Positions 10,526 through 61,100 of a DNA stretch of 64,000 nt are shown here, piece by piece; within the stretch, counting starts at the first letter, position 1, and each line of letters starts with the position of its first letter. The DNA lies in contig CAWIXR010000001.1 of NCBI GenBank assembly GCA_963840145.1, positions 42,327 to 106,326 of the forward strand, given 5' to 3'. The stretch is from an uncultured Chloroflexia bacterium. GTDB lineage: Bacteria > Chloroflexota > Limnocylindria > QHBO01. The translations under genes and the position numbers were made by a program. The notes beneath the pieces are model-generated. The model had not been told where the DNA came from and made no database searches. It was given only the letters and a program-made list of their open reading frames with translations.

Positions 10526-11776
10526 TCAGTCGCTCTTGCGACGCAGGAAGCTCGGGATGTCGAGGTCCGACTCGTTGTAGGCCGGGCGCTGGTCGAGGCT
10601 GCCGGAGCTGACCGGCAGCGGCTTGCGCTCGGTGGGCTTGACCTCGGTCGCCTCGCGCTCCGTCGGCCGTGCGAACGGCGACTCGGTGCCGAGCTGCTCG
10701 GTCAGCGACTCCCGCTGCTCACGATCGCGCTCGATCTCGGCGAGGATCTCCCGGCTGCGCTCGTCAAGCGAGGTCTCGATCCCGATGCTCGCCTCGGTGC
10801 CGTACTTCGACGGCTTCGCCTTCTTGCTCGAGTCGAAGCCCGTGGCGATGACCGTGACCTTCACCTCGTCGCGCATCCTGTCGTCGATCACCGTGCCGAA
10901 GATGATGTTCGCCTCCGGATCGGCGGCTTCCTTGATCACCTCGGCCGCCTCGTTGACCTCGAACAGGCCGAGGTCCGAGCCACCGGTGACGTTGAAGAGG
11001 ATGCCGCGCGCGCCGGTGATGTTGACCTCCAGCAGCGGGCTCATGACGGCGGCGCGTGCCGCCTCGATGGCCCGGTTCTCACCGGTGCCGATGCCGATGC
11101 CCATCATCGAGCTGCCCGCCTCGCGCATGATCGTCTTCACGTCGGCGAAGTCGAGGTTGATGAGGCCGGGAACCGTGATCAGGTCGCTGATGCCCTGGAC
11201 GCCCTGGCGCAGGACGTCATCCACGACGCGGAACGCGTCGACGATCGAGGTCTTCTTGTCGACGACCTCGCGCAGGCGATCGTTCGGGATCGTGATCAGC
11301 GTGTCGACCTTCTCCTTGAGCAGCTCGGTGTACTGCTCGGCGACGAGCTTACGGCGCATGCCCTCGAAGCTGAACGGCTTCGTCACCACCGCGACGGTCA
11401 GCGAGCCGAGGTCCTTGGCGATCTCGGCGATGACCGGTGCGGCGCCGGATCCGGTGCCACCGCCCATGCCGGCGGTGATGAAGATCATGTCGGCGTCCTT
11501 GAGCGCCTCGTAGATCTTCTCGGAGTCCTCCTCGGCGGCGCGCTGCCCGACACCCGGATCGGCTCCGGCGCCCAGGCCGCGCGTCATCTTGTCGCCGATG
11601 CGGATCTTGTGCGGCGCGTCGCTCTGGAGCAGCGCCTGGGCATCGGTGTTCACGCTGATGAACTCGACGCCCATCATCTCGGCCCGGATCATTCGGTTGA
11701 CGGCGTTGCTCCCGCCGCCACCGACCCCGATGACCTTGATGAGTGCGAAGTTCTCGGAATCCGATCGGAGCGGCAT
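10526..11776 (-). CDS. ftsZ: cell division protein FtsZ
   Basis: GGGTGSG tubulin signature (…[23 protein letters not shown]…) and acidic C-terminal tail. SD GAGAGGA lies upstream of the ATG. Confidence 0.97.
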
Positions 11777-11866
11777 ATCGGGTGATCCTCTCGATGAGTG
11801 CTGGCAAACCCGAGGGCTCGACGGGTTTGACCGATTCTAACGATCGCCGTATGACGGCGTGGGACG

Positions 11867-11920
11867 TTTTCCACATCCGGGCACGGAGTTATCCACACTG
11901 CGGCATCTGAGCGTGGATAG
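11867..11920. promoter_or_regulatory. DnaA-box cluster in the ftsA-ftsZ spacer: TTTTCCACA (11867-11875), perfect TTATCCACA (11889-11897), and inverted weaker CTATCCACG (complement 11912-11920)
   Basis: Matches the E. coli TTWTNCACA consensus. Lies upstream of ftsZ. Confidence 0.45.
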
Positions 11921-11970
11921 ATCGGAACGGATGTCCACCGTGGCGAACGCACTCGCGATGGCACGCACTC

Positions 11971-13206
11971 CTAGCCGGGGAAGAGGTTTCGCACCCACTC
12001 GCCGACGCGCGAGAGCGGGTTCGTACCGTTGCCGGTGCCGTAGCCGATCGGCTCCTCGCCGAGGTGGTGGGCGCCCCACAGGAGGAGGCCGATCGGTGTC
12101 GCGAATGCCGGGTTGCCGATCTGGTCCATCAGCCCGCCGACGCCCTGCGGCGACCCGGCGCGCACCGGCATCTCGAGTGTGTCGCGGGCGAGGACGTCGA
12201 CGCCGCCGAGTCGCGCCCCGCCGCCGGTCAGAACGGCTCCGGCCGGCAGCATGCCCGCGTGCCCGGAGCGCTTCACCTCCTCGCGGATGAGGCTGAAGAT
12301 CTCCCCCATCCGCGCCTCGATGATCTCGGACAGCTTGCGGCGCTGGATCGTCTGCCCGGCCGCCTCGCCGAGCACCGCGACGTTGAGCAGCTCCTGGGGC
12401 TCGACCTCGGCGAGGTTGGCGGTGCCGTGCTTGATCTTGATCTCCTCGGCCAGGTTGAGCGACGTCCGCAGGCCGATCGCCACGTCGTTCGTGACGTTGA
12501 TCCCACCGACCGGCAGCACGGCGGTGTGGTAGACCGCGCCGTCGACGAAGATCGCGATGTCGGTCGTGCCGCCGCCGATATCGGCCACCAGCACGCCGAG
12601 CTCCTTCTCCGTATCGGTCAGGGTGGCCTCGGCCGCGGCCAGCGAGCTGATCACCATCTCGTCGATCTGGACGCCGGCGCCGGTGACGCACTTCGACAGG
12701 TTCTGGACCGATGTCGCCGCCCCGGCGACGATATGGGTCTCGACCTCGAGGCGCACGGCCGACATCCCGAGCGGGTCCTTGATCCCCTCCTGGCCGTCGA
12801 CGATGTAGCCGCGCGGCACGACGTGCAGGATCTCGCGGTTGGACGGCACCTGGACGGCCTTGGCCGCATCGGTCGCGCGGCCGACGTCCTCGCGGCTGAC
12901 CTCGCGCTTGTGCCCCGAGACCGCCACGACGCCGCGGGAGTTCTGCGAGCTGATGTGCGAGCCGCCGACGGCGACGAAGGCCGATGAGATCTTGTACCCG
13001 GAGAGGCGCTCGGCCTTCTCGACGCTCGAGGCGATCGAGTTCACGGTCTGGTCGATGTTGGCGACCATCCCCTTCTTCATCCCGACGGACGGCGCGATGC
13101 CATAGCCGATGACGTTGACGTCACCGGCCCGGCCGACCTCTCCGATGAGGGTCGTCACCTTCGTGGTGCCCGCGTCGATACCGACCAGGACAGCCTCGCG
13201 TTCCAA
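11971..13206 (-). CDS. ftsA: cell division protein FtsA
   Basis: Actin-fold motifs (…VGIDAGTTKV…, …DIGGGTTDIAIF…). Start proposed at the TTG preceded by GGGAGGT. The track's longer ORF begins at 13245. Confidence 0.9.
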   Translation of the reverse strand: MEREAVLVGIDAGTTKVTTLIGEVGRAGDVNVIGYGIAPSVGMKKGMVANIDQTVNSIASSVEKAERLSGYKISSAFVAVGGSHISSQNSRGVVAVSGHKREVSREDVGRATDAAKAVQVPSNREILHVVPRGYIVDGQEGIKDPLGMSAVRLEVETHIVAGAATSVQNLSKCVTGAGVQIDEMVISSLAAAEATLTDTEKELGVLVADIGGGTTDIAIFVDGAVYHTAVLPVGGINVTNDVAIGLRTSLNLAEEIKIKHGTANLAEVEPQELLNVAVLGEAAGQTIQRRKLSEIIEARMGEIFSLIREEVKRSGHAGMLPAGAVLTGGGARLGGVDVLARDTLEMPVRAGSPQGVGGLMDQIGNPAFATPIGLLLWGAHHLGEEPIGYGTGNGTNPLSRVGEWVRNLFPG

Positions 13207-13260
13207 GCTACCTCCCGCTCCGGGCGTGCTCGGCGAGCGCGCCATCGCTATGGGCCGAGC

Positions 13261-13584
13261 CTACAGGAAGTGACGCCGGATGAGGGCCACGTTCTGGAAG
13301 ATGCGCAGGCCGAACGCGAAGAGGGCGACGAGGTAGAGGTCGATGCCCAGCCGGTCGCCGACGAACGTCAGCGCCACCGCCACCAGGGTGTTGGTGATGA
13401 ACCCCGAGACGAAGATCCGGTTGTCGTAGTGGTCGTCCAGCTCGGAGCGGATGGCGCCGAGCACCGAGTCCAGGCCAGCGAGGATGGCCACCGCGGAGTA
13501 CCTCGCGAGGTCGGGGCTCACGTCCACGTTGAGCACCAGACCGAGCGCGATCCCGAGCGCAAGGCCAATCAGCGGAAGCCACAT
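13261..13584 (-). CDS. sbp: DUF1290 small basic membrane protein (Sbp/YlxX-like) between ftsQ and ftsA
   Basis: 107 aa starting MWLP…; hydrophobic. Conserved position between ftsQ and ftsA, as in Firmicutes. Confidence 0.75.
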   Translation of the reverse strand: MWLPLIGLALGIALGLVLNVDVSPDLARYSAVAILAGLDSVLGAIRSELDDHYDNRIFVSGFITNTLVAVALTFVGDRLGIDLYLVALFAFGLRIFQNVALIRRHFL

Positions 13585-26740: not shown

Positions 26741-26770
26741 CACCACTAGTCCCCATTTGGCCCCATTTGG
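26741..26770 (-). promoter_or_regulatory. MraZ operator: three direct repeats with 10-bp phasing (ccaaaTGGGG / ccaaaTGGGG / actagTGGTG on the minus strand)
   Basis: Read directly. Lies between the predicted Pmra -10 and the mraZ start, as in E. coli, where MraZ binds TGGGN direct repeats. Confidence 0.6.
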
Positions 26771-26784
26771 AACCACAGGGCGCC

Positions 26785-26813
26785 ACTATACAGGTCGCAA
26801 GGTGCCCGTCAAG
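26785..26813 (-). promoter_or_regulatory. Pmra-like sigma-70 promoter: -35 TTGACG (complement 26808-26813), 17-nt spacer, -10 TATAGT (complement 26785-26790)
   Basis: Read directly on the minus strand: ccccTTGACGggcaccttgcgacctgTATAGTggcg. Confidence 0.55.
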
Positions 26814-41546: not shown

Positions 41547-41575
41547 GCAAGCACTCCTTCGCGTGATCGGTGGTG

Positions 41576-41648
41576 TGGGCCCGGCAGGAATCGAACCTGC
41601 GACCGTCCGGTTATGAGCCGGTTGCTCTAACCATTGAGCTACGGGCCC
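41576..41648 (-). tRNA. tRNA-Met (anticodon CAT); elongator-like, although an Ile-lysidine tRNA cannot be excluded
   Basis: Reverse complement: GGGCCCGUAGCUCAAUGGUUAGAGCAACCGGCUCAUAACCGGACGGUCGCAGGUUCGAUUCCUGCCGGGCCCA. G1-C72 is paired, so it is not an initiator. The 3' CCA is not encoded in register. Confidence 0.85.
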
Positions 41649-41720
41649 GCGAGCAAGACGGTGGACAAGTCCGAGTATAGACGGATGTCTTTGCACAACG
41701 ACATCGACATTTCTCCACGT

Positions 41721-41729
41721 TGTGGATAA
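41721..41729 (-). promoter_or_regulatory. Perfect DnaA box (TTATCCACA on the minus strand), 80 bp upstream of parA
   Basis: Read directly on the plus strand as tgtggataa. Confidence 0.4.
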
Positions 41730-41807
41730 CCCGGATGCCCGTTTCGGGGTCGAGCGCCTATCATCGGTTTCGTTCCTCCCGCCCCTGTCGCACGGAAGGT
41801 GTTGCGT

Positions 41808-42574
41808 TGACCAAGGTCATATCGATCGCGAATCAGAAGGGCGGTGTGGGCAAGACCACCTGCTCCATCAACCTGGGCGGCGCATTGGCGGAACGCGGTT
41901 ACCGCGTCCTCTGCGTCGACATGGATCCGCAGGCAAATCTCACCGTCGGCCTGGGCGTTTCCCTCTCGGACGTGCGCGTGTCGATGGCCGACGTCCTCTC
42001 CGACGATCGCGTTGGTCTTGACGAGATCGTCCGCGAGACCGAGACGCAGGGTCTGTGGGTCGCACCCGCAACGCTCGAGCTCGCGTCGACCGAGGTCGAG
42101 CTGTTCACCGCCATCGGCCGCGAGATGGTGCTTCGCGACGCGCTGGACGGCTGGGCGGACCGCCAATTCGACGTCGTCATCATCGACTGCCCGCCGACGC
42201 TCGGTCTGCTGACCATCAACTCGCTGGTGGCGTCGAACCGCGTGATCATCCCGGTGCAGACGCAGTACTACGCGATCAAGGGCCTGACCGCGCTCATCAA
42301 GGTCATCAACACGATCAAGATCAAGCTGAACCACGACCTCGAGGTGCTCGGCCTGCTGCCGACCTTCTTCGACGGCCGCACGGTGCTCGCCCGCGAGATG
42401 CTCGCCAACCTCAAGCAGCTCGGCGATCACCGGGTCTTCAACACGATGATCAAGCAGACGGTGAAGCTCGGCGAGGCGCCGCTCACCGGCAAGCCGGTCA
42501 CCGAGTACGCGACGAACTCATCGGCCGCCCGCGCATTCCGTGACCTGGCACAGGAGGTGATCGAGCTTGGGTAG
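41808..42574 (+). CDS. parA: chromosome partitioning ATPase ParA/Soj
   Basis: Starts at the TTG after GGAAGGTG; KGGVGKTT deviant Walker A. Confidence 0.9.
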
Positions 42575-43565
42575 CAAGGGTCCCGCATTCCGGGAGAACA
42601 TCCACCGACTCTTCGACGAGGCCCAGGCGACCGACCTCGCCCCGGGCATCGTGTCGCTCATCGAGTCACGCGGCACACACGCGCAGATCCGCGAGGTGCC
42701 GGTCAGCAAGATCCTGCCGAACCCGGCGCAGCCGCGGCTCTCCTACGACGAGGAATCGCTGACCGAGCTGGCCGACTCGATCAGAGAGCACGGCGTTCTC
42801 CAGCCGATCCTCGTGCGGCCCAGCGGCTCGAAGTTCGAGCTCATCGCCGGGGAGCGGCGCTGGCGCGCGTCGACAATGGCCGAGCGCGAGACGATCCCCG
42901 CAATCGTCGCCGAGTTCGACGACCAGACCGCGCTCGAGGTCAGCATCATCGAGAACCTCCAGCGCGAGGACGTCTCGCCGCTCGAGGAGGCGGTGATGTT
43001 CCGCAAGATGACCGAGACATTCGGCTATTCGCTGCGCCAGCTGGCGCAGAAGGTCGGCAAGGACAAGGGGTACATCGAGAACCGGCTGCGCCTTACCGAT
43101 GCGCCTGCCGACGTCCGCGAGCTCGTGTCCGTGCGCAAGGACACGATCAGCCACGCCTACGAGCTGATGAAGATCGGCGACGAGCGAAAGCGTCGACGGC
43201 TCGAGAAGCGGATCATCGCCGGCGAACTGTCGCTGGCCAAGCTACGGCTGATCACCGGCACGACCGGCCATCCCGAGGAAGAGAACGGTCACGCCGAGCA
43301 CAAGCCGCGACGACGGGCGAAGACCGCGGCCGGGCGCGCGGCCGAGGTGCGGGCCGCGGACGATGCGCTGATGGGCGCTCGCTCGAAGCTCGCCGAGGGC
43401 ATCGATGACCTCGTCGACATCCTCCGCCAGCCGGAGCTCATGGAGCAGATTCCCGAGGTCAACCGGGCGAACTTCGCGAAGCACCTCACGATCACGAAGC
43501 TCAAGATCGAGAACGCGATCGCGATCATCCGCGCCGGGACGCCCGCATCAGCCGAGGGCGAGTGA
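42567..43565 (+). CDS. parB: chromosome partitioning protein ParB/Spo0J
   Basis: ParB N-terminal domain (…LQPILVRPSGSKFELIAGERRWRAS…) and HTH region. Start overlaps the parA stop. Confidence 0.9.
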   Translation: MGSKGPAFRENIHRLFDEAQATDLAPGIVSLIESRGTHAQIREVPVSKILPNPAQPRLSYDEESLTELADSIREHGVLQPILVRPSGSKFELIAGERRWRASTMAERETIPAIVAEFDDQTALEVSIIENLQREDVSPLEEAVMFRKMTETFGYSLRQLAQKVGKDKGYIENRLRLTDAPADVRELVSVRKDTISHAYELMKIGDERKRRRLEKRIIAGELSLAKLRLITGTTGHPEEENGHAEHKPRRRAKTAAGRAAEVRAADDALMGARSKLAEGIDDLVDILRQPELMEQIPEVNRANFAKHLTITKLKIENAIAIIRAGTPASAEGE

Positions 43566-48930: not shown

Positions 48931-49118
48931 TCGGTCCGATCGCGGACGGTGCGCGGACGCACCGTGCCGGAGTTCAATTGTAAGGACGTTCTCACGAAAC
49001 CCTTACCGCTGACTGATGGCGCCCTTACCGAATCCTGATCGCTGACCACGAATGTCAGCGTGTGCTGAAATCATCCTCACCCCGACCCGTCCAGCTGCCG
49101 GACGTCACGCGCATCGGC

Positions 49119-52100
49119 GTGATCGTCCGGGAGCTCCTCCGCCGTGCAGGAACGTCCCCTACCGCGGCACTGGAGGTCGGGGCTGATTCGAGCTGCCTGC
49201 TTTCCGATTGCGGGCGCCCGCTGACTTCGGCTGACGACAGCTACTGCAGCCGAGCCTGTCTGCGGCGCGCGGGTCGCATCGCGCAGGCCGCCGAGCTGGC
49301 GGGACAGAGCTGCGCCAGGGACGGCTGCGAGAACCTCTTCGACGCCCGCACGAGCGGTCACCGCTTCTGCAGCAGCGCGTGTGGGATCGAGGCCCGCCGG
49401 ACCGATCGGGCACCATGGACCCACGGCCTGACGGCCGCCCCCACTCGCCTTCCCGCCAACATCCCAGCCCCCGGCCTCGTCGCCGGGGGCGTTGCACGTC
49501 TCGGCCGCGGCGCGACGCAGGTCGGTGCCGCGATCGCCGCGGGGACGGCCGCCATTGCGCGGCCCATCCGATCGGGCGTCTCGCGCGCCGGCACCGTCCT
49601 CGTTGCGGCCACGCGTCCGGTCCGGGCCGGGGTCAGTCGCGCACTGGGCCCGATTGCCCGGCGCCTCGAGCCGGTGGTGAGCCCGGTGCGCCGGTGGCTC
49701 GGAGCCCTGTACGCCAGGACGGCGCCGGCCAGGGCCGTCATCGGCCGACCACTCAGCCTTGCATGGCGCCGCACACCGCGGCGCGTTCGTGTGCCTGGCG
49801 CCCTTCTCGTCGCGACCGCATCGGTCATGGTGCTCGTGCTCTCCTTCGCGGCCGCGTCGGACTTCACCGTCAACGACACGAGCGACCGCGTCGACGCGGT
49901 CGTCGGCAATGGCGTCTGCGACGTCAACACCAGCACGTCCGGCAGCCAGTGCACCCTGCGCGCCGCCATCCAGGAGGCGAATGCGCACCCCGGCCACGAC
50001 AAGATCACGATCGAGCCGGGCCTCTACCAGCTCGCGATCCCGCCGATCAACGAGAACGCCGCGAACGTCGGCGACTTCGAGCTCCTCGACACGGTGACCA
50101 TCGAGAAGCAATGGTTCACCCTCGGCGACGTCATCATCGACGGCGGCAATCCCCTGCCGAGCGCGCCGGTCATCGCCCGCGGCATCGACCGCCTCTTCGA
50201 GGTCCACCCCGGCGCCGGTGACGTCACCATGCGCGACGTCACCCTCCAGAACGGCTTCAGCCCCGAAGAGGGCGGCGCGATCCAGAACTGGTCGCTCGGC
50301 AAGCTGACCCTCGACGGCGTGACAGTCCGCGACAACTTCGCCGAGAAGGCCGGCGGCGGCCTCAACCATGGCGACCTCAACGACTACGAGTGGGCCACCG
50401 ATCCGCCGAACCTCGACCTGCTGCCCCACGGGCGCGTCGAGGTCATCGACTCGTTCTTCACCGGCAACGGCTCGGCCGGCGGCAGCGGTGCCGCCATCAA
50501 CAACGTGTCGGGCGGCACGATCACGATCACCGGCAGCACGTTCACCCTGAACCCCGGCGCGATCATGCCGGACCCGCTCGACCCTGAGGAGTTCCTCCTC
50601 GTCGACCCGGCCGACTACCCGCTCGACGCCAGCACGATCGCCAACCAGGCCCGCTGGGAGAAGGTCGGCACGCTGCGGATCAGCAACTCGACGATCTCGC
50701 TGAACGCGGCCGAGGGCAACGGCGCCGGCATCCTCAACGAGGGCGACAGCATCGTCGAGCTCGCGAACGTCGTCCTGACCCAGAACCGCACCGGCGCCAG
50801 CGGCGGCGGCCTCTACACCGAGGGCGGCAAGGTCACGATCACCGGCGGCACGGTCTCAAAGAACCAGGCGGCGAACGGCGGCGGCCTCTACGGCGGCGGC
50901 CATGTCTCGCAGTTCGGCCTCCGCGGGACGTTCACGTTGTCGGGCGTCCAGGTCGCCGACAATATCGCCGAGAACGGCGGCGGCCTGTACAACGACGGCG
51001 ACGCCCACATGGTCGTGACCAACACGACCTTCGCGCGCAACCACTCGTCCGACCACGGCGGCGCGCTCGTCAGCGATGGCCGCGCCAGCCTTCTGCTCAG
51101 CCACGTCACGGTCACGGCCAACACCTCGAACGGCGAGGGCGGCGGCATCTGGCTGCACAGCGAGCGGATGCAGACGATCGCCGACTCGACGGTCACGCTC
51201 AACAGGGCGGGCGTCCCGGTCGTCGAGGAGGACGGCACGCTGAGCGACGACATCGCCGGCGGTGGCGGCATCCACACCGATGGCGGCCCGACGACGATCC
51301 TGCGCACCCTCATCGACAGCAACGAGGCGAATGATGAGGGCGGCGGACTCAGCCTCAACAACGCGGGCGACCTCCTGATCGCGGACAGCACGATCTCGAA
51401 CAACCGGGCATTCGACGGCGGCGGCATGGAGAACAGCGCTCGGGAGGTGACCTTCGAGCGGCTCACGGTCACCGGCAACCGTGCGGCCTCGGCCGGCGGC
51501 GGCATCCACAACACCTCGAGCGGCGAGTTCTTCATCCTCGACACGACGGTCCGCGGCAACACCGCCCAGATCGGCGGCGGGCTTGCCAACGCGCCGGACA
51601 ACAGGATCACGATCCGCGGCTCGCTCTTCCTCAATAACACGGCGCGCCTGGGGACGCCCGGCGAGGACGGCGAGCTGCCCGAGGAGGCCGGCTACGGCGG
51701 CGGCATCATGAGCTACGCCGACGGCGACTCGCTCATCGAGAACACCACGATCTCCGGCAACAAGGCCGCGGTGGCCGGCGGCGGCCTGTTCCACGACGCC
51801 GACGGCGAGCTGCGCATCGTGCACACCACGGTCTGGCGCAACTCGGCGCCGGCCGGCGGCGGCATCGGCGTCAAGGAATCCGACTTCGTGCCCGACATCC
51901 CGCCGAAGACGAACGAGGCCGTCGTCCTGAAGAACTCGATCGTCGGCGGCAGCATCCGCGGCGGCAACTGCGACTGGTACATCCGGTCGGAGGGCGGCAA
52001 CCTCGAGAGTGGCGGCGTCAACACCTGCTTCCTGGCCGTCACCCACGAGACGGCGCAGAGCCCGATTGAGCTCGGCGTCCGCGACCGCCGCGGCGACCCG

Positions 52101-55100
52101 AAGCTGCTGGCCATCGCCGACAACGGCGGGCCGACCCTGACCCACGCGCTCCTGTACGGCAGCCTCGCCATCGACTCGAGCCCCGAGCCGTGCTCGGTCG
52201 ACGACCAGCGCGGCGTCGAGCGCCCCGCGCCGAACGACACGGTCCATGACGAGATGAACCGATGCGACGCCGGCGCCTACGAGTTCGTCGGTCCGCCGCC
52301 GCCGTACGACAACGTCGCCCCCGAGACGATCTTCAACTACCCCGAGGACGGTCCTGTCCAGGATTCCCTCGAGACGATGGCGTTCACCTTCCGCGGCGAG
52401 GATCCCGCGGTCGACGCGAACAACGTCCCGGTCAACTTCACCTCGCCCGATGAGCTGAACTTCGAGTGCCGCTTCCTCGAGATCGAGCTGACCGAGGAGC
52501 CCGAGCCCGTTCCGCCGTGGGAGCCGACGCCGCCCGAGGAGATGTGGAACGGCTGCTCGAGCCCGTGGTCCGTGCCGCTGACCGAGGAAGGTCTCTTCCG
52601 CCTGGAGATCCGGGCGATCGACCGCGCCGACAACATGGACGAGACGCCGGTCAGCGTGATCATCAGCGACGTCGGCCTGGAGCCGCCCGACACCCAGATC
52701 GTCGAGGCGCCCGGCCTGACCCCCGGCACCGTCGTGCCGCCCGCTCCGGCGGAGACGCCGCAGACCAACAGCCGCGCCGCACTGTTCAGCTTCCGCGCGG
52801 TGAGCGACTTCACCCCGTCGCAGTTCGCCGAGTACGAGTGCCGCCTCGACAGCCGCGACCCGGAGCAGTGGCTCGAATGCTTCAACCCCGTGATGTACTC
52901 CGACCTGACCACGGGCCTGCACACCTTCGAGGTGCGCGCCATCGGCACCGAGCTCGGCGGCCCCGATCCGACGCCGGCCCGGTACACCTGGCGCGTCGGC
53001 CCGGATCCGGCCGGCGGAGTGCCGTTCAGCTGCGATGAGGCGAACATCACCCTGACGCCCAACGCCGACGGCTGGGCGGACCAGGTCAACCCGCTCGAGA
53101 ACTACAAGTTCGAGACGGAGCTCGACGTCCGGTCCGAGGCCAATGTGCCCGAGTCCGGCCCGACCGAGCACCGGAACGCGCGGGCCTTCATCCGCTTCGC
53201 GCTCCAGGCTGACACCGACTGCGAGCTGCAGTCGGCCACGCTGCGCATGTTCTCCGAGGGCCACACCGAGGGACGAACCCTCGTCGCGGTTCCGCTCGCC
53301 GGGCCGTTCAAGGAGAGCACGCTCACCTGGGTCAGCGCGCCGCTCGAGGTCCCGGGCGCCGTCCCGGCGCCGGTCCCCGCGGGCGAGGGCTATCGCGACT
53401 TCGACGTCACCGACCACGTGAGGGACATCCTCGCCGGCACACTGGTGAACCATGGCTGGCTCATCCGCGACGCGGTGGAGTCCGATCCCGAGGGCGGCGA
53501 CCAGACCTTCGCGTCACGCGAGCTGCCACAGGATCCGCCGGAGATCACCCTGCCTGAGCTCGAGCTGCGCTTCGCGCCGGTCGCAAGCCCGCCGCCGGCC
53601 GAGCGTGACCAGACGCTCGTCGACAAGTACGTCGAGTGCGGTGAGGTCATCACCGAGAGCGTTCGGCTCCTGGGCGACGTGACCGGCTGCCTCACCGAGG
53701 GCATCGCCATCGGCGCCCCGAACATCATCCTCGACCTGAACGGCAAGATCGTCTCGAGCGGCTTCATCCTTGAGCCGGGCGAGGAGGACAACCTCACGCC
53801 GGGCATCCGCAGCGGATACCCGAACGTCGAGATCCGCAACGGCACCGTCACGAACTTCGGCTACGGCATCCTGCTCGGTCCTGGGTCGGTGCACAGCGAA
53901 GTCCACCACATGACCCTGACCCGCAACGCCCTGACCGGCCTGCAGCTGTTCGACGCCGATAACGGGCGCCTCGGCAACACGGTCCGCGACAGCACGTTCG
54001 ACTCGAACGGCGAGACGGGCCTGCAGCTGATGAGCGGCACCGAGGGCAGCCTCATCGAGAACAACTTCTTCATCAGCAACGGGATGTCGATCCACCTCTT
54101 CGACTCCCACCGCAACACGATCCGCAACAACACGATCAGCGGGATCATCCTCGACCCGACCCTCGACTCCGACGCCGGAATCGTGGTCGAGAACGGCTCG
54201 CGCGATAACGTCCTGATCGACAACGACGTCAGCGAAACCGGTGACGCCGGCATTGTCATCCACCAGGGCTCGCACGGGAACACCGTCGTCGGCGGCATCC
54301 TCGTCCGGAACGGCGACGCCGGCGTGATCGTCCAGGATTCGGACCGCATCACGGTCGACGGCGTCCTCGCCCACCAGCAGTCGGACGGCGGCGTCGTGCT
54401 GTCGAACTCGAGCAACAGCGTCGTCAAGAACAGCGACCTGGGCTACAACCCCTCCGGCGTCGACGCATCGGGCGTGAACAACCTGCTCGTCTACAACAAC
54501 GACGTGTCGCACTCGCTCCAGGCCGGCATCGAGCTCGGCGAGGGTGTGAACATGGTCGTCACCTGCAACACGGCCAACCTGAGCGGCGGCAGCGGCATCT
54601 CGATCGAGGGCGCCACGTTCGACTCGCTGGGCGTCGCCGTCGGCGGCGCCCTGGTCACGGGCAACACGGCCAACGAGAACGCCGAGTCCGGCCTCTCGAT
54701 CGCCGTCGGCCGCCACCGGGTCGGTGGTCCGGTCATCTGCCCGGGTGGCGAGGTCATCGGCAACAACGCGAACAACAACGCCGGCTACGGCATCGACGCC
54801 GGCGAGGACCCCGTTCCGGGCGAGCCGCTCGACCCGAACCGCAACATCGACGGCGGCGGGAACCGCGCGAGCGGCAACCACGCCGACGTCGGCGTGGCCG
54901 TCGGCCTGCCGGACGCCATCCAGTGCGTGGGCGTGGTCTGCGCCGCCGGCGACGACGTGCCGATGACGCCTGAGGACCTCACCGCGCCCGAGACGATCCT
55001 TCTCGCCGGCCCGGTCGGCTCGATCCTTCCGCTGCCCGCGGGCGTTTCCACGAACAGCGAGCGCGCCGTCTTCGAGTTCACCGGCAACGACGGCCCGCAG

Positions 55101-58100
55101 GGCGACGCCCCCACCGCGCTCATCTTCGAGTGCCGCGTGGACGCGCCGCCGGATCCGGTGATCATCGAGGAGCCTGAGCTCGAGCCGCCCGATCCGGGCG
55201 AGCCGCCGGAGCTGCCCGAGCCGCCCGAGGGCGAGTTCTGGGTCGCGTGCTCCAGCCCGCTCACCTACCTGGCCCTCGAGTCCTCGATGACGCACACCTT
55301 CGAGGTGCGAGCCGTCGACCAGGCCGGGAACTTCGACCTGACCCCGATCACGTACACGTGGACGATCGAGGCTGGCGTCGAGGAGGACGGCAGCGAGGAG
55401 TGCCTGCTCGGCGAGCCGATCAGCGACACGTGCTCCGTCCTCGGGCAGGCGCCCGACACGCGGATCAGCGCCGCCCCGGGCGAGCTGATCACCGATGAGG
55501 CCGGCACCCGCTACGACACCACGAACCGCTCGGCCACGTTCCGGTTCACCGGCAGCGACAACGTCACCGCCGGGTACAACCTGGCCTACGAGTGCCGCAC
55601 CTGGTACAGCGAGCTCAACGACGCGCTCACGCCGGCGGACATCCCCTCCGACGTCGACTTCGTCCCGTGCGAGTCGCCGAAGCAGTACATCGAGCTTCCA
55701 TACGGCGGCCACATCTTCGAAGTGCGCGCGACCGATCGCGGCGGCAACACCGACGCGGAGCCTGCCTGGCACGCCTGGTGGGTCCATCCCCCGCCGCCCG
55801 ACACGACGCCTCCGGACACGGAGATCCAGTCGGGTCCCGATCCGATCACCGTGCGGACGAACGCCACGTTCACCTTCACGGGAAGCGACAACCAGACGCC
55901 GACCGGCGACCTGCTCTTCGAGTGCCGCCTCGACGGCGCGATGGATCCGCTCGCCCCGGCCGTGCCGCTATGGACCCTGTGCACCTCCGGTCACGTCGTC
56001 AACGGCCTCACCCCGGGCGATCACGTCCTGCAGGTCCGCGCCAAGGACCAGAGCGGCAACGTGGACGACGTCAACGGGCTGGTCGACGCCACCGTGACCC
56101 CTGGGGAGATGGATCCCAGCGACGGCGTGCCCGCCGCCTACACCTGGACGGTCGGCCCGACGCCGATCGCAAGGACGGTCTTCTGCGGCCAGAAGATCAC
56201 GATCAGCATCGTGCTCAACAACAACCTGGGCGATTGCATCGGCCATGGCCTGATCATCGGTGCCAACAACATCACGATCGACCTGAACGGCAAGACGATC
56301 GACGGCAAGTCGATCGGTGCGGCCATCCTGAACAACGGCTACGACTCGGTCACGATCCGCAACGGCCGACTCACCGACTTCGACTACGGCGTCATGCTCA
56401 ACAACGGCGCCCAGAACAACATCGTCGAGGGAATCACCGTCGACCTCGCCCAGGAAGCCGGCATCAGCCTCGGCCACGGCACCTTCCCGGAGGATCCGAC
56501 ACTGGCACCCAGTGAGCCCGTGCCCGGATACCAGTCCGGCGTCGACAACACGATCCTGCGTGGCAACACCATCGTCTCGAACAAGCGCGGCGTGTGGCTG
56601 GTGAACGGTGCCCGCGACAACGTCGTGCGCGGCAACCTCATCGGCGCCACGAGTGGCCCGGCCGTGTTCATCGAGCGCGCCACGGCCACCCTCGTCGAGA
56701 GCAACGACATCCAGGTCTCCAGCGACGCCGGCGTCCTGCTTGAGGGCGCGACCAACAACGTCATCCGCAACAACACGATCGCCGAGGCCGGCACCGGCGT
56801 CGAGATCAGCGACACGACGTCCGGGCCGACGGTCGGCATCGAGTCGAGCGACAACGTCGTCCAGGGCAACCACATCAGCGAGACGAGCGGTGCCGCCGTG
56901 GATATCGTCCACTCGCGCCGCAACCAGATCCTCGACAACGTCGGCACGCTGACGAACTCCGACGCGATCGAGCTGTTCTACGGGTTCGACAACGTGATCA
57001 AGGGCAACGACGTCCGTGGCAACAAGGGCGGCATCAGCCTGAAGAACTCGACCGGCAACACGATCGAGGCCAACAACACCAGCAACTCGGATGGGACGGG
57101 AATCTCGCTCGAGTCGCAGTCGTTCGCCAACGTGATCGTCAACAACATCTCGAACAACAACGTCGGCGGCGGCATCTACATCGGTGACGAGACGCCGGCC
57201 GGCCAGGGAACCCTCGTCCAAGGCAACACCACGAACGGGAACAAGGAAGCCGGCATCAAGGCAACGAAGCCGGCCCACATCTTCAAGGACAACGTCTCGT
57301 TCGACAACGACAGCTGGGGCATCTACGTCGGCGACCCGTCGAACGGGCGCGCCAACATCGACGGCGGCGGCAACCGCGCGCAGGGCAACCTCGGCCCACT
57401 CGGCATCGACCTGAAGCCGCAGCAGTGCTACAACATCACCTGCCTCGGCGGCGAGGGCGGCGGCGACGGGATCCCGCCGAACACGAACATCCTCGAGGGA
57501 CCGATCCAGCCTGTCAGCAGCGAGAGCCTCGCCACCTTCCGCTTCAGCGGCGCCGACAACGCCAGCCCGGTTACCTTCGAGTGCCGCTTTGACAGCGCCC
57601 TCGAGACCGCCTGGGAGGCCTGCGCCAGCCCGAAGACCTACACGAACCTCGTCAACGACACGTACACCTTCGAGGTGCGCGCCGTCGACTTCTCCGGCAA
57701 CACCGATGAGACGCCCGCCAGCTACACGTTCGCCGTGGAGCTTGGCGACTTCGAGGCCTTCATCGACGCGAGCCCGGACAGGGCGACCGTCGAGACGAGC
57801 GCGACCTTCGAGTTCTCGTCCAACCGCCAGAGCGGTGTCACCTTCCAGTGCCTGCTCGTCGACCCGCTGACCGTCCTCACGACGGCGACGTGGGCTGCAG
57901 CGCCTGTCTGCACCTCACCGATCAGCTACACCGATCTCGCGGTCGGCGGCCACGAGTTCTGGCTGCGCGCGACCGGTCCGTCGGACGCCTACAGCACGAA
58001 GATGTACGCCTGGACCATCGGTCCTGCGCCCGTCCCGGCCGAGGTCTCGTGCGGCCAGGTCCTCATGCAGAGCACGCGCGTGCTCAACGACCTCGTCGAC

Positions 58101-61100
58101 TGCGGCGGCTACGCCCTGATCGTCGGCGCGCCCGGCATCACGATCGACCTCGACGGGCACGTCCTCGACGGCCTCGGGCTCGACGCCGGCGTCCTGAACA
58201 ACGGGCATGACGACGTCACGATCAAGAACGGGCTCATCACCCAGTTCCTGTACGGCGTCCAGCTCAACGCGGGCACCGCGCGCAACGTCGTGCACTCGCT
58301 GCGGCTCGAGGCGAACGAGGAGGCGGCGATCGCCCTCTCCGACGCCGACCAGGGCGCCGACGGCAACCTGATCCGCGACAACTCGATCGTCGGCAACGAG
58401 GTCGGCATCGCCCTCTACACCGGGACGCGGCACGCCGTGATCCGCAACAACGACCTGGGCGCCAACCAGGGCGAGGGCGGCATCTATCTCGAGTTCGCCA
58501 GCGACAACCTCATCGAGCACAACGAGATCTCGATGAGCGGCGGCGGCGGCATCTTCATGATCGGCGGCGGCAACAACGTCGTCACCGACAACGTGCTCAA
58601 GGAGAACGGCGGCTACGGGATCGTGGCCGGCGAGGAGCTGCTGCCCTCCAACAACAACCTCATCCAGCGCAACGAGGTCGAGGGCGGCCAGGGCGGCGTC
58701 CTCGTCGGCGGCAACAACAACACCGTCATCAACAACTCGATCACCGGCGTGACGGGCCCCGGCGTCGCCGTCGAGCTCGCCAACAACACCCTGGTCAAGG
58801 GCAACGACTTCATGGGCAGCGCCGGCGGCGTCTCGGTCGGCGAGGCGAACGGCACGACGATCGTCGCCAACAACGCCAGCGGCACGCTGGGCGCGGGCAT
58901 CGAGATCGGCGAGCTGTCGCTCGACACGATCGTCCGCGACAACACGGCCAGCGGTAACGGCGGCGCCGGCATCGAGATCACCGAGTCCTCCGTCCTCGAT
59001 CGCGGCTCGCTCGTCGAGAACAACACGGCCGACGCCAACGGCGGCGACGGCATCTACGTCGAGGGCGCCGGTCACCGCGTCGTGAACAACGAGGCCAAGC
59101 TGAACGGCGGATGGGGCATCTACTCCGTCGGCGCCGTCGATGGCGGAGGCAACCTCGCCGCGGGCAACATGGAGCCCGAGCAGTGCTTCGGCATCGTCTG
59201 CGAGCTCGGCACGGTCCCCGGCGCTCCGGAGACCTGGATCATCGCCAAGCCGGCCGACTGGAACGCGGGCGTCGAGGGCGTCCAGAGCCCGAGCCGCAAC
59301 GTCAGCTTCACGTACATGGCCTCGGACGACTTCTCGCCGATCACCGACATCGTCTTCGAGTGCCGTCTCGACAACGACAACCCGCTCGCGTGGGAGGACT
59401 GCGAGTACCCCGCCGAGTACCTGAACCTCGGTCCGGGCACCCACAAGTTCGAGGTCCGCGCGATCGACATGCTGGGCCAGGGCCTGGCCGATCCCACGCC
59501 GGCCGTGTTCGAGTGGGCGTACGAGCCGCTGCCGAGCGGCGTCGCGCCCGAGGTGACGATCGACGTCACCCCGGTCGACACCGACCCGCTGAAGCCCGGC
59601 GTGCAGACGTGGATGGTCGACTCGATCTTCACCTTCTCCGCGAACGAGCCCGACGTCACCTTCCAGTGCAAGGTCGACGCGAACGGCTACGAGCCGTGCG
59701 GGTTCGAGGCGGCGCAGTTCATGAACCAGGGCGCCTTCGAGTGGGGCCTGAACGAGACCGAGGTCGGGAACCACACCTTCTTCGTCCGCGCCATCGACTT
59801 CGAGGGCAACGTCAGCGCGCCTGAGACCTTCGTCTGGGAGCTGCTCGGCGTCAACGTCGTCTTCACGAGCGGCCCGGGCTTCACCCCGGCCACCGGCGGC
59901 CCGGCGGGCGACCCCGCCACCGGCGGCATGACCTCCAGCACCTCGGCGATGATCGAGTTCGAGGCCAACGTCGGCGACGCGACCTTCTGGTGCCGGTTCG
60001 ACAGCATCGATCCGGGCGGGTACTTCCCGTGCGAGTCGCCGTTCCTGGCCGGGCCGGCCTTCGCCGCCCAGACGGAGTTCCCGGAGCCGCTGCTGGCCGG
60101 CGACCACACCCTCGAGGTGTACGGCGAGTCCGAGCTCTACGGCTCGGCGGCCGAGCTCGAGCCCGCGATCTACGAGTGGGAGGTCGTCGACCCGGTTGAC
60201 GGCAGCCCGCCCAACACGACGATCGAGCGCGCCCCGGCGGGCCAGGTCACCAACCCGGACAACACGCTGAGCTCCACGACGTTCGAGTTCGTCGGTCTCG
60301 ACGACCTCACGCCGGACTTCCTGCTCCTGTTCGAGTGCCAGGTCACCAACGGCACCGAGCTGCCCAACGAGCTCGAGTGGATCGAGTGCACGAGCCCGTT
60401 CAACCTGCTCGACGTCTACTCGTACGCCGATCCGCAGATGGCAATCGGCGTGGAGCACACCTTCTGGGTGCGCGCCGTCGATACCTTCGAGCCGGAGTTC
60501 CCGGATCCGACGCAGCCCGAGTTCGAGGGCAACCCCGATCCGACCCCGGACTTCCACACCTGGACGCCGATCGCCGACACGCGCGGCCCGATCACCACGA
60601 TCTCCGCCGGACCGGCGAATGGCGCCACCGTCGGTGAGGAGGTCGAGCCGTACATGTTCTTCGGCCTCGACGACGCGACCCCGCTGCACCTGCTCACGTT
60701 CGAGTGCCAGGCCTACGTCACGGCGGCCGGCCCCGACCCGCAGGGCTGGGAGACGTGCGAGACCACGGTCGACAGCGGCTGGGAGCTCAGCGTGCCTGAG
60801 CCGGGCGCCTACACCGTCGCGATCCGCGCCACCGACATGGCCAACAACGTGGGCATCGCCGCCACGCGACTCGTGACCGTCGCGGCCGCCCCCGTCGTGA
60901 CCTTCATCACCGGCCCGGCCGGCCGGCTCGATCCGGTCTCCGGCGAGCCCGACGGCGCCAGCCAGACCGAGAACGCGGTCTTCACCTTCACCTCAGACCA
61001 GCCCGGCTCGACGTTCGAGTGCTCCTTCGAGGGCGACTTCCTGCCCTGCGGCGGCCTCAGCGACCCGGCGACGGGCGCGGCATGGGTCGTCGAGACCGGC

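Follow-up and report, generated by a model that had tools for sequence, protein, structure and literature searches.

Paired DnaA-box words beside a candidate ftsZ promoter, and again upstream of parAB, in one clade of Limnocylindria

Does the spacer between ftsA and ftsZ in this uncultured Limnocylindria bacterium connect transcription of a division gene to the initiator of chromosome replication? The question was raised by an initial annotation of the window (the whole stretch of 64 kb analyzed here), which listed three DnaA-box words in this spacer, two of them in the same orientation and 22 bp apart, and a third, inverted one. The words are present in the sequence at 11867–11875, 11889–11897 and 11912–11920 as listed, and Pfam matches established the genes on both sides of the spacer, which comprises 194 bp (11777–11970). 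A DnaA box is a 9-mer with the consensus TTWTNCACA, in which positions 3 and 5 are degenerate and the others fixed. The genes and the box-like words considered below, including a fourth word, are as follows.

10526–11776, minus strand: ftsZ coding sequence (Pfam Tubulin, FtsZ_C)
11971–13245, minus strand: ftsA coding sequence (Pfam FtsA, SHS2_FTSA)
11889–11897, plus strand: box 1, strong, TTATCCACA (TGTGGATAA on the gene strand), matching TTWTNCACA at 9/9 positions
11867–11875, plus strand: box 2, strong, TTTTCCACA (TGTGGAAAA on the gene strand), matching TTWTNCACA at 9/9 positions
11912–11920, minus strand: box 3, weak and inverted, CGTGGATAG on the forward strand with reverse complement CTATCCACG, matching TTNTCCACA at 7/9 positions
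11931–11939, plus strand: box 4, weak, ATGTCCACC (GGTGGACAT on the gene strand, containing GTGGACA), matching TTNTCCACA at 7/9 positions

Seen along the direction of transcription, towards ftsZ, the strong boxes read TGTGGATAA ... TGTGGAAAA, as ftsA and ftsZ are both minus-strand genes. They share one orientation, with 22 bp from start to start, and form direct repeats without a palindrome. ParB binding at parS was rejected as an explanation for the ftsZ boxes, since they are direct repeats and no canonical parS (TGTTNCACGTGAAACA, a 16-bp palindrome) was found in the window at up to three mismatches. In the same division cluster, ftsQ and ftsA are separated by a gene for a DUF1290 small membrane protein (13261–13584, minus strand), which is also conserved among relatives; the arrangement is familiar from Bacillota division clusters.

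The strict consensus is rare in this DNA. In a window of ~70% GC, TTWTNCACA was found three times in 64 kb, compared to 0.11 expected occurrences, and a count of three was reached in 1 of 100 shuffles. Two of these three strict boxes are the pair in the ftsZ spacer, and the third is located upstream of parA. When one mismatch was allowed, 13 matches were obtained versus 11.6 expected, indicating no global excess in the window; five of the 13 are located in intergenic DNA, which makes up ~10% of the window, and every one of these belongs to the ftsZ or the parA cluster, while the eight matches inside coding sequence look like background. In the Limnocylindria group, 34 ftsZ loci with a total of 367.5 kb contained TTNTCCACA eight times, and all eight occurrences were the strong pair in the four closest genomes. 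The strong box pair in the ftsZ spacer is not a chance occurrence, and, apart from the parA promoter, the strict word is essentially confined to this pair across hundreds of kilobases of the lineage.

We compared the spacer to those of 13 close relatives (Ca. Limnocylindria) with FtsZ sequences 83–93% identical to that of the window, four of them available as genomes and nine retrieved via protein search and contig look-up. Similarity of FtsZ assigns the window to a Candidatus Limnocylindria bacterium, with 83–92% identity to the best genome matches, and long contigs among the close relatives include ENA ERZ25039494 contig_5172 (557 kb) and JGI Ga0208612_1000009 (214 kb). The initial annotation would have been contradicted by unconserved boxes at background frequency. 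We found the opposite: on top of the excess described above, both strong boxes were present in 13/13 relatives, in a spacer that has otherwise diverged. Box 1 reads TT[A/G]TCCACA and box 2 reads TT[T/C/A]TCCACA among these relatives, such that position 3 alone varies (A/G in box 1; T/C/A in box 2), which is a degenerate position of the DnaA consensus, and positions 1, 2, 4, and 6–9 are invariant, matching the DnaA-box pattern. The conserved sequence runs one or two bases past the 9-mer (TGTGGATAA[C/G]T). The distance between boxes 1 and 2 was 22 bp in 13 of the 14 sequences, the window included, and 24 bp in the remaining one (L162).

Column identity across the 14 sequences was highest in box 1 (0.98), followed by a TAGAAT element (0.95), box 2 (0.89), a CC[G/C]ACG hexamer (0.88), the box 4 core (0.81), and box 3 (0.57). 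The remaining 73 spacer columns had an identity of 0.35, which suggests little or no constraint outside the listed elements. The TAGAAT element and the hexamer are probably parts of a promoter for ftsZ, and they are listed here together with a leader hairpin and with the mraZ promoter of the same window.

11834–11839, minus strand: TAGAAT, putative −10 element of an ftsZ-proximal promoter, identified by phylogenetic footprinting
11858–11863, minus strand: CCCACG, weak −35-like hexamer, 18 nt upstream of the −10
11805–11829, minus strand: leader hairpin where the ftsZ mRNA is predicted to begin, CAAACCCG, 9-nt loop, CGGGTTTG, a perfect 8-bp inverted repeat
26741–26812, minus strand: mraZ promoter and repeats; TTGACG, 16 nt, TATAGT, near-consensus

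A sigma-70 consensus promoter scan of the spacer gave no match, nor did a terminator scan, and the assignment of an ftsZ-proximal promoter, anticipated for this spacer by the initial annotation, therefore draws entirely on conservation. We consider it likely that TAGAAT is an active −10: its context TCGnTAGAATCGG was kept in 12/13 relatives, and box 2 was separated from it by 36–38 bp in 14/14 sequences. Transcription of ftsZ is predicted to start near 11827, which would place the center of box 1 at approximately −66 and that of box 2 at approximately −44. The putative −35 hexamer takes the form CC[G/C]ACG in most relatives, CCGACG being the commonest, and CCAGCG in two; the end of box 2 is separated from it by a gap of 3 bp in the window and 3–5 bp in relatives. 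As a −35, CCCACG is poor in comparison to the TTGACG of the mraZ promoter. Downstream of these elements, the leader hairpin has an invariant stem and a variable loop among relatives, with compensatory changes absent, and it may represent a 5′-terminal stabilizing element.

Upstream of the strong pair, the array continues with weaker words. The initial annotation had counted two to three boxes, of which the two strong ones and a weak third were borne out, with box 3 matching at 7/9 positions and conserved in its core only; a fourth, box 4, had been overlooked. The conserved part of box 3, centered at approximately −89, is limited to a TCCA(C) core located 19–21 bp from box 1. Box 4, centered at approximately −108, is oriented like boxes 1 and 2, and its GTGGA core was detected in the window and in 12/13 relatives, with L164 lacking this core. 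The distance from the box 4 core to box 1 was 40–42 bp, except for 52 bp in L169 and L170, that is, one extra helical turn, and this 10-bp insertion between boxes 4 and 1 preserves the helical phase. Altogether, four box-like words are placed within ~75 bp, spaced by ~20–22 bp on one helical face. A spacing of 21–22 bp exceeds the 11 bp at which arrayed DnaA protomers are in direct contact, a point against a role for DnaA here.

Four box-like words within ~75 bp of one helical face could also be read as the chromosomal replication origin, or as part of it, which the initial annotation had judged unlikely. We find this reading hardly credible. The spacer has no AT-rich unwinding element (58% GC across 11860–11940), the lowest-GC stretches of the window are located elsewhere, and no DnaA-trio-like repeats were seen by inspection. 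The skew is flat around 10–14 kb, without a switch, all flanking genes are encoded by the minus strand, and neither a dnaA nor a dnaN signature was detected in the window. Moreover, the conserved geometry is tied to the promoter.

Two rearranged loci among the close relatives indicate to which gene the boxes belong. In L163 (2514–3001), a CheB/CheR fusion gene is located upstream of ftsZ and separates it from ftsA, and in L168 (1598–3001), three genes on the opposite strand, including a response regulator, are located between ftsA and ftsZ. The module of boxes and promoter was retained in both. Given that it is still found beside ftsZ in L163 and L168, the module is part of the ftsZ promoter, as opposed to the ftsA 3′ end.

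The same two loci bear on the suggestion that pairing between inverted words, of box 1 with box 3 and of box 3 with box 4, creates RNA hairpins in a transcript reading through from ftsA into ftsZ, with a role in processing, attenuation or stability. Boxes 1 and 3 do constitute a 10-nt inverted repeat in the window, and the spacer RNA folded somewhat better than shuffled sequences (z = −2.36), a level reached by 3 of 200 shuffles. However, complementarity in relatives was reduced to 5-nt cores, box 2 is unpaired and yet invariant, and the words were retained in L163 and L168 without ftsA upstream. Neither a terminator-like site nor a matching Rfam family was found in the spacer, and the same words occur at parA in another arrangement. 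We thus regard a role as RNA hairpins as very improbable.

The boxes have a phylogenetic limit. Among 29 more distant loci of the Limnocylindria group, with FtsZ 62–79% identical, no box was found within 350 nt upstream of ftsZ, but most of these loci had a −10-like TATACT or TAGACT ~100–130 nt upstream of ftsZ. In 46 loci from other phyla, mostly Bacillota, a single box match upstream of ftsZ was obtained in total, corresponding to the chance rate. Given that the boxes are missing outside the clade while a −10 is kept in most of the distant Limnocylindria-group loci, they represent a clade-specific addition to an older ftsZ-proximal promoter, and because distant loci have this −10 without boxes, the boxes are dispensable for ftsZ expression in general.

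The third strict box of the window is part of a second cluster, located ahead of the chromosome segregation genes parA and parB (41807–43565, plus strand).

41660–41729, no strand assigned: second box cluster, between a tRNA-Met gene (41575–41648, minus strand) and parA (41807–42574, plus strand)
41660–41668, minus strand: word 1, TTGTCCACC
41689–41697, plus strand: word 2, CTTTGCACA
41711–41719, plus strand: word 3, TTCTCCACG
41721–41729, minus strand: word 4, strict, TTATCCACA, reading TGTGGATAA towards parA

A metagenome scan with ParB retrieved 80 relatives (72–95% identical; loci L081–L160), and TGTGGA[T/C]AA was present at the same place in every parAB locus with enough upstream DNA. This one position accounted for 51 of the 52 strict matches in 445.5 kb of parAB loci. 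Across 46 distinct relatives, words 1, 2 and 4 (GGTGGACAA, CTTTGCACA and TGTGGA[T/C]AA) were invariant except at position 3, word 3 (TTCTCCACG) was kept in 34, and the spacings within the cluster were fixed at 29 bp and 22 bp. The last box was followed by a conserved putative −10 (TATCAT) at 38 bp in the window and at 37–39 bp in 46/46 distinct relatives. The parA and ftsZ boxes therefore have in common both their orientation and their distance to the −10, which is 36–39 bp overall. In addition, CTTTGCACA exploits the free position 5 of the DnaA consensus; given that this word is invariant with position 5 changed, a plain reader of a TCCAC core would not explain it.

The second cluster could be a DnaA-regulated promoter region of parAB (and of tRNA-Met), or an origin unlinked from dnaA. 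It coincides with the 80-mer of lowest GC content in the window (48.8%), and the genes on either side point away from it; a long AT-rich element was not found at this cluster. Cumulative GC skew peaks near 38–40 kb, with positive skew before the peak and negative skew after it, opposite to the usual origin pattern. Where the skew changes sign, near 40–46 kb, the genes also change orientation, and to the left as well as to the right the coding strand is rich in C. Because the sign change tracks gene orientation, skew cannot separate replication from coding effects here. A search for dnaA signature peptides in 1.42 Mb of sequence found none. As for the usual partner site of ParB, the parAB loci of the 80 relatives yielded one parS match at up to four mismatches, with four mismatches, in L149, though ParA and ParB are intact. 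Further to the right, the window ends within one open reading frame (49017–64000, plus strand) that spans 4,990 codons or more; its first 1,500 residues match CBM96 and NosD/PMP-type beta-helix repeats, which suggests a giant surface or secreted protein.

Which protein would read these words? The conserved words at both promoters conform to the DnaA consensus in 6/6 cases, down to its two degenerate positions, which speaks against another lineage-specific DNA-binding cell-cycle regulator that recognizes TGTGGAWAA words at ftsZ and parAB, and whose sites would resemble DnaA boxes by coincidence or for competition with DnaA. Such competition is known from other phyla, where Spo0A, CtrA, AdpA and MtrA compete with DnaA at origins. 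Another regulator would account well for the clade specificity of the boxes: none precedes ftsZ in the 29 more distant loci of the group, and the 46 loci of other phyla have no more than chance predicts, whereas DnaA is universal. It would also fit the conservation of one or two bases beyond the 9-mer, and the ~21–22 bp spacing with a fixed −10 distance is typical of ordinary activators. On the other hand, no transcription-factor gene was consistently linked to the ftsZ or parAB locus, and MraZ, which is encoded in the division cluster, has a different operator in the window. We therefore view a regulator other than DnaA as unlikely, if well worth keeping in mind.

MraZ itself was rejected as the reader of the ftsZ boxes. 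MraZ operators consist of at least three direct TGGGN/GTGGN repeats with a period of ~10 bp, and the mraZ leader of the window has GTGGT, TGGGG, TGGGG and GTGGT at ~26741–26776, with a 10–11 bp period, downstream of the mraZ promoter. These repeats look like a classical MraZ operator, in contrast to the ftsZ array of 9-mers 22 bp apart with one of them inverted.

If DnaA is the reader, it could still act on replication instead of transcription. DnaA-box clusters in Bacillus, as well as datA and DARS in E. coli, are sites of DnaA storage or recharging, and the ftsZ array might be a site of this kind near the origin, its main role being in the control of initiation and its influence on ftsZ transcription small or absent. 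The intergenic location of the array and its mixture of strong and weak boxes would suit such a site. So would its position ~30 kb from parAB, which is normally origin-proximal, a linkage repeated in a 214-kb contig of a relative. The head-to-head boxes in the parA cluster are furthermore reminiscent of DARS cores. Yet storage or recharging gives no reason for a fixed distance of 36–38 bp and a fixed orientation to the −10, nor for the array to follow ftsZ through rearrangements, and the high-affinity boxes number two only. We consider this an improbable function for the ftsZ array.

A broader scenario combines both clusters. The tRNA-Met/parA cluster would be an origin, or a regulatory core, unlinked from dnaA, and DnaA would also assemble at the ftsZ array, at a distance of 30 kb, both buffering the availability of the initiator and gating ftsZ transcription. 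Together they would form a compact circuit of replication, segregation and division that evolved independently of the alphaproteobacterial one. We put this forward as a speculative and rather doubtful extension.

The reading we favor, to which we assign a probability of roughly 60%, is that the boxes are DnaA-binding sites that modulate, and probably activate, an ftsZ promoter with a weak −35. We infer DnaA as the reader protein from the match to its consensus and from which positions are conserved. Activation seems preferable to repression because the boxes are located upstream of the core promoter and not over it, and because the −35 is poor; repression via the spreading of a DnaA oligomer is also conceivable. 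DnaA would occupy the two strong boxes and maybe extend cooperatively onto the weak phased ones, and, bound beside the −35, it would help RNA polymerase use the poor ftsZ promoter. Transcription of ftsZ would then follow the level or the nucleotide state of DnaA, and, with the same module placed before parAB 30 kb away, a single input linked to replication would act on both division and segregation genes. This arrangement suggests that replication, segregation and division may be wired together in this lineage, a coupling known from a few model bacteria.

The proposal of the initial annotation that the boxes may couple replication initiation to ftsZ transcription is thus supported as far as sequence analysis can go, and to the same extent the ftsZ promoter would join a known type, the DnaA-box-controlled cell-cycle promoters, with the parAB site strengthening the case. 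The coupling of replication to division and segregation is largely unknown outside model phyla. To our knowledge, no cell-cycle transcription circuit has been described in Chloroflexota, nor any DnaA-box-controlled cell-cycle promoter in this phylum. If our reading is correct, a DnaA regulon would have evolved independently in a soil lineage that is abundant and uncultured. The clade boundary allows a natural comparison between ftsZ promoters that have boxes and those that lack them.

Among known systems, the ftsZ promoter of Caulobacter crescentus is a close parallel; it is bound and activated by DnaA (Hottes et al., 2005; Fernandez-Fernandez et al., 2011, reviewed in PMC8203912). Both cases have DnaA-box words in the ftsZ promoter region and would couple transcription of division genes to the initiator, with further genes sharing this input, gcrA, mipZ and podJ in Caulobacter and apparently parAB here. 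Unlike in Caulobacter, the organism belongs to Chloroflexota and not to Alphaproteobacteria, the array has two full-consensus boxes at a fixed distance of 22 bp plus two weak phased ones, and the feature is limited to one clade within the Limnocylindria group.

Escherichia coli provides a cautionary case. Its three DnaA boxes upstream of ftsZ, within ftsQA, are irrelevant to ftsZ transcription (Masters, 1989; Garrido, 1993; Smith, 1996, reviewed in PMC8203912), and the presence of boxes is therefore no proof of control. As in ftsQA, the boxes described here are located upstream of ftsZ in the division cluster and invite the same hypothesis of replication–division coupling. In contrast to the E. 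coli boxes, which are inside coding sequence, they are intergenic, placed beside a footprinted −10, and selected across diverged relatives.

In Pseudomonas aeruginosa, DnaA bound at oriCII regulates the gidAB-parAB operon (PMC13438810). The second cluster (41660–41729) likewise places DnaA boxes before the promoter of an operon containing parAB, except that parA is here preceded by a tRNA-Met gene and not by gidAB. The promoter of ftsL in Bacillus subtilis is also bound by DnaA (PMC8203912). Finally, E. coli nrdAB is activated by DnaA from high-affinity upstream boxes and repressed when DnaA-ATP is high (reviewed in PMC8203912). Our locus concerns another gene in another organism and has a different box spacing, but in both cases high-affinity boxes directly precede the core promoter and weaker sites are close by, which makes the dose-dependent control of nrdAB a plausible model for ftsZ in this clade.
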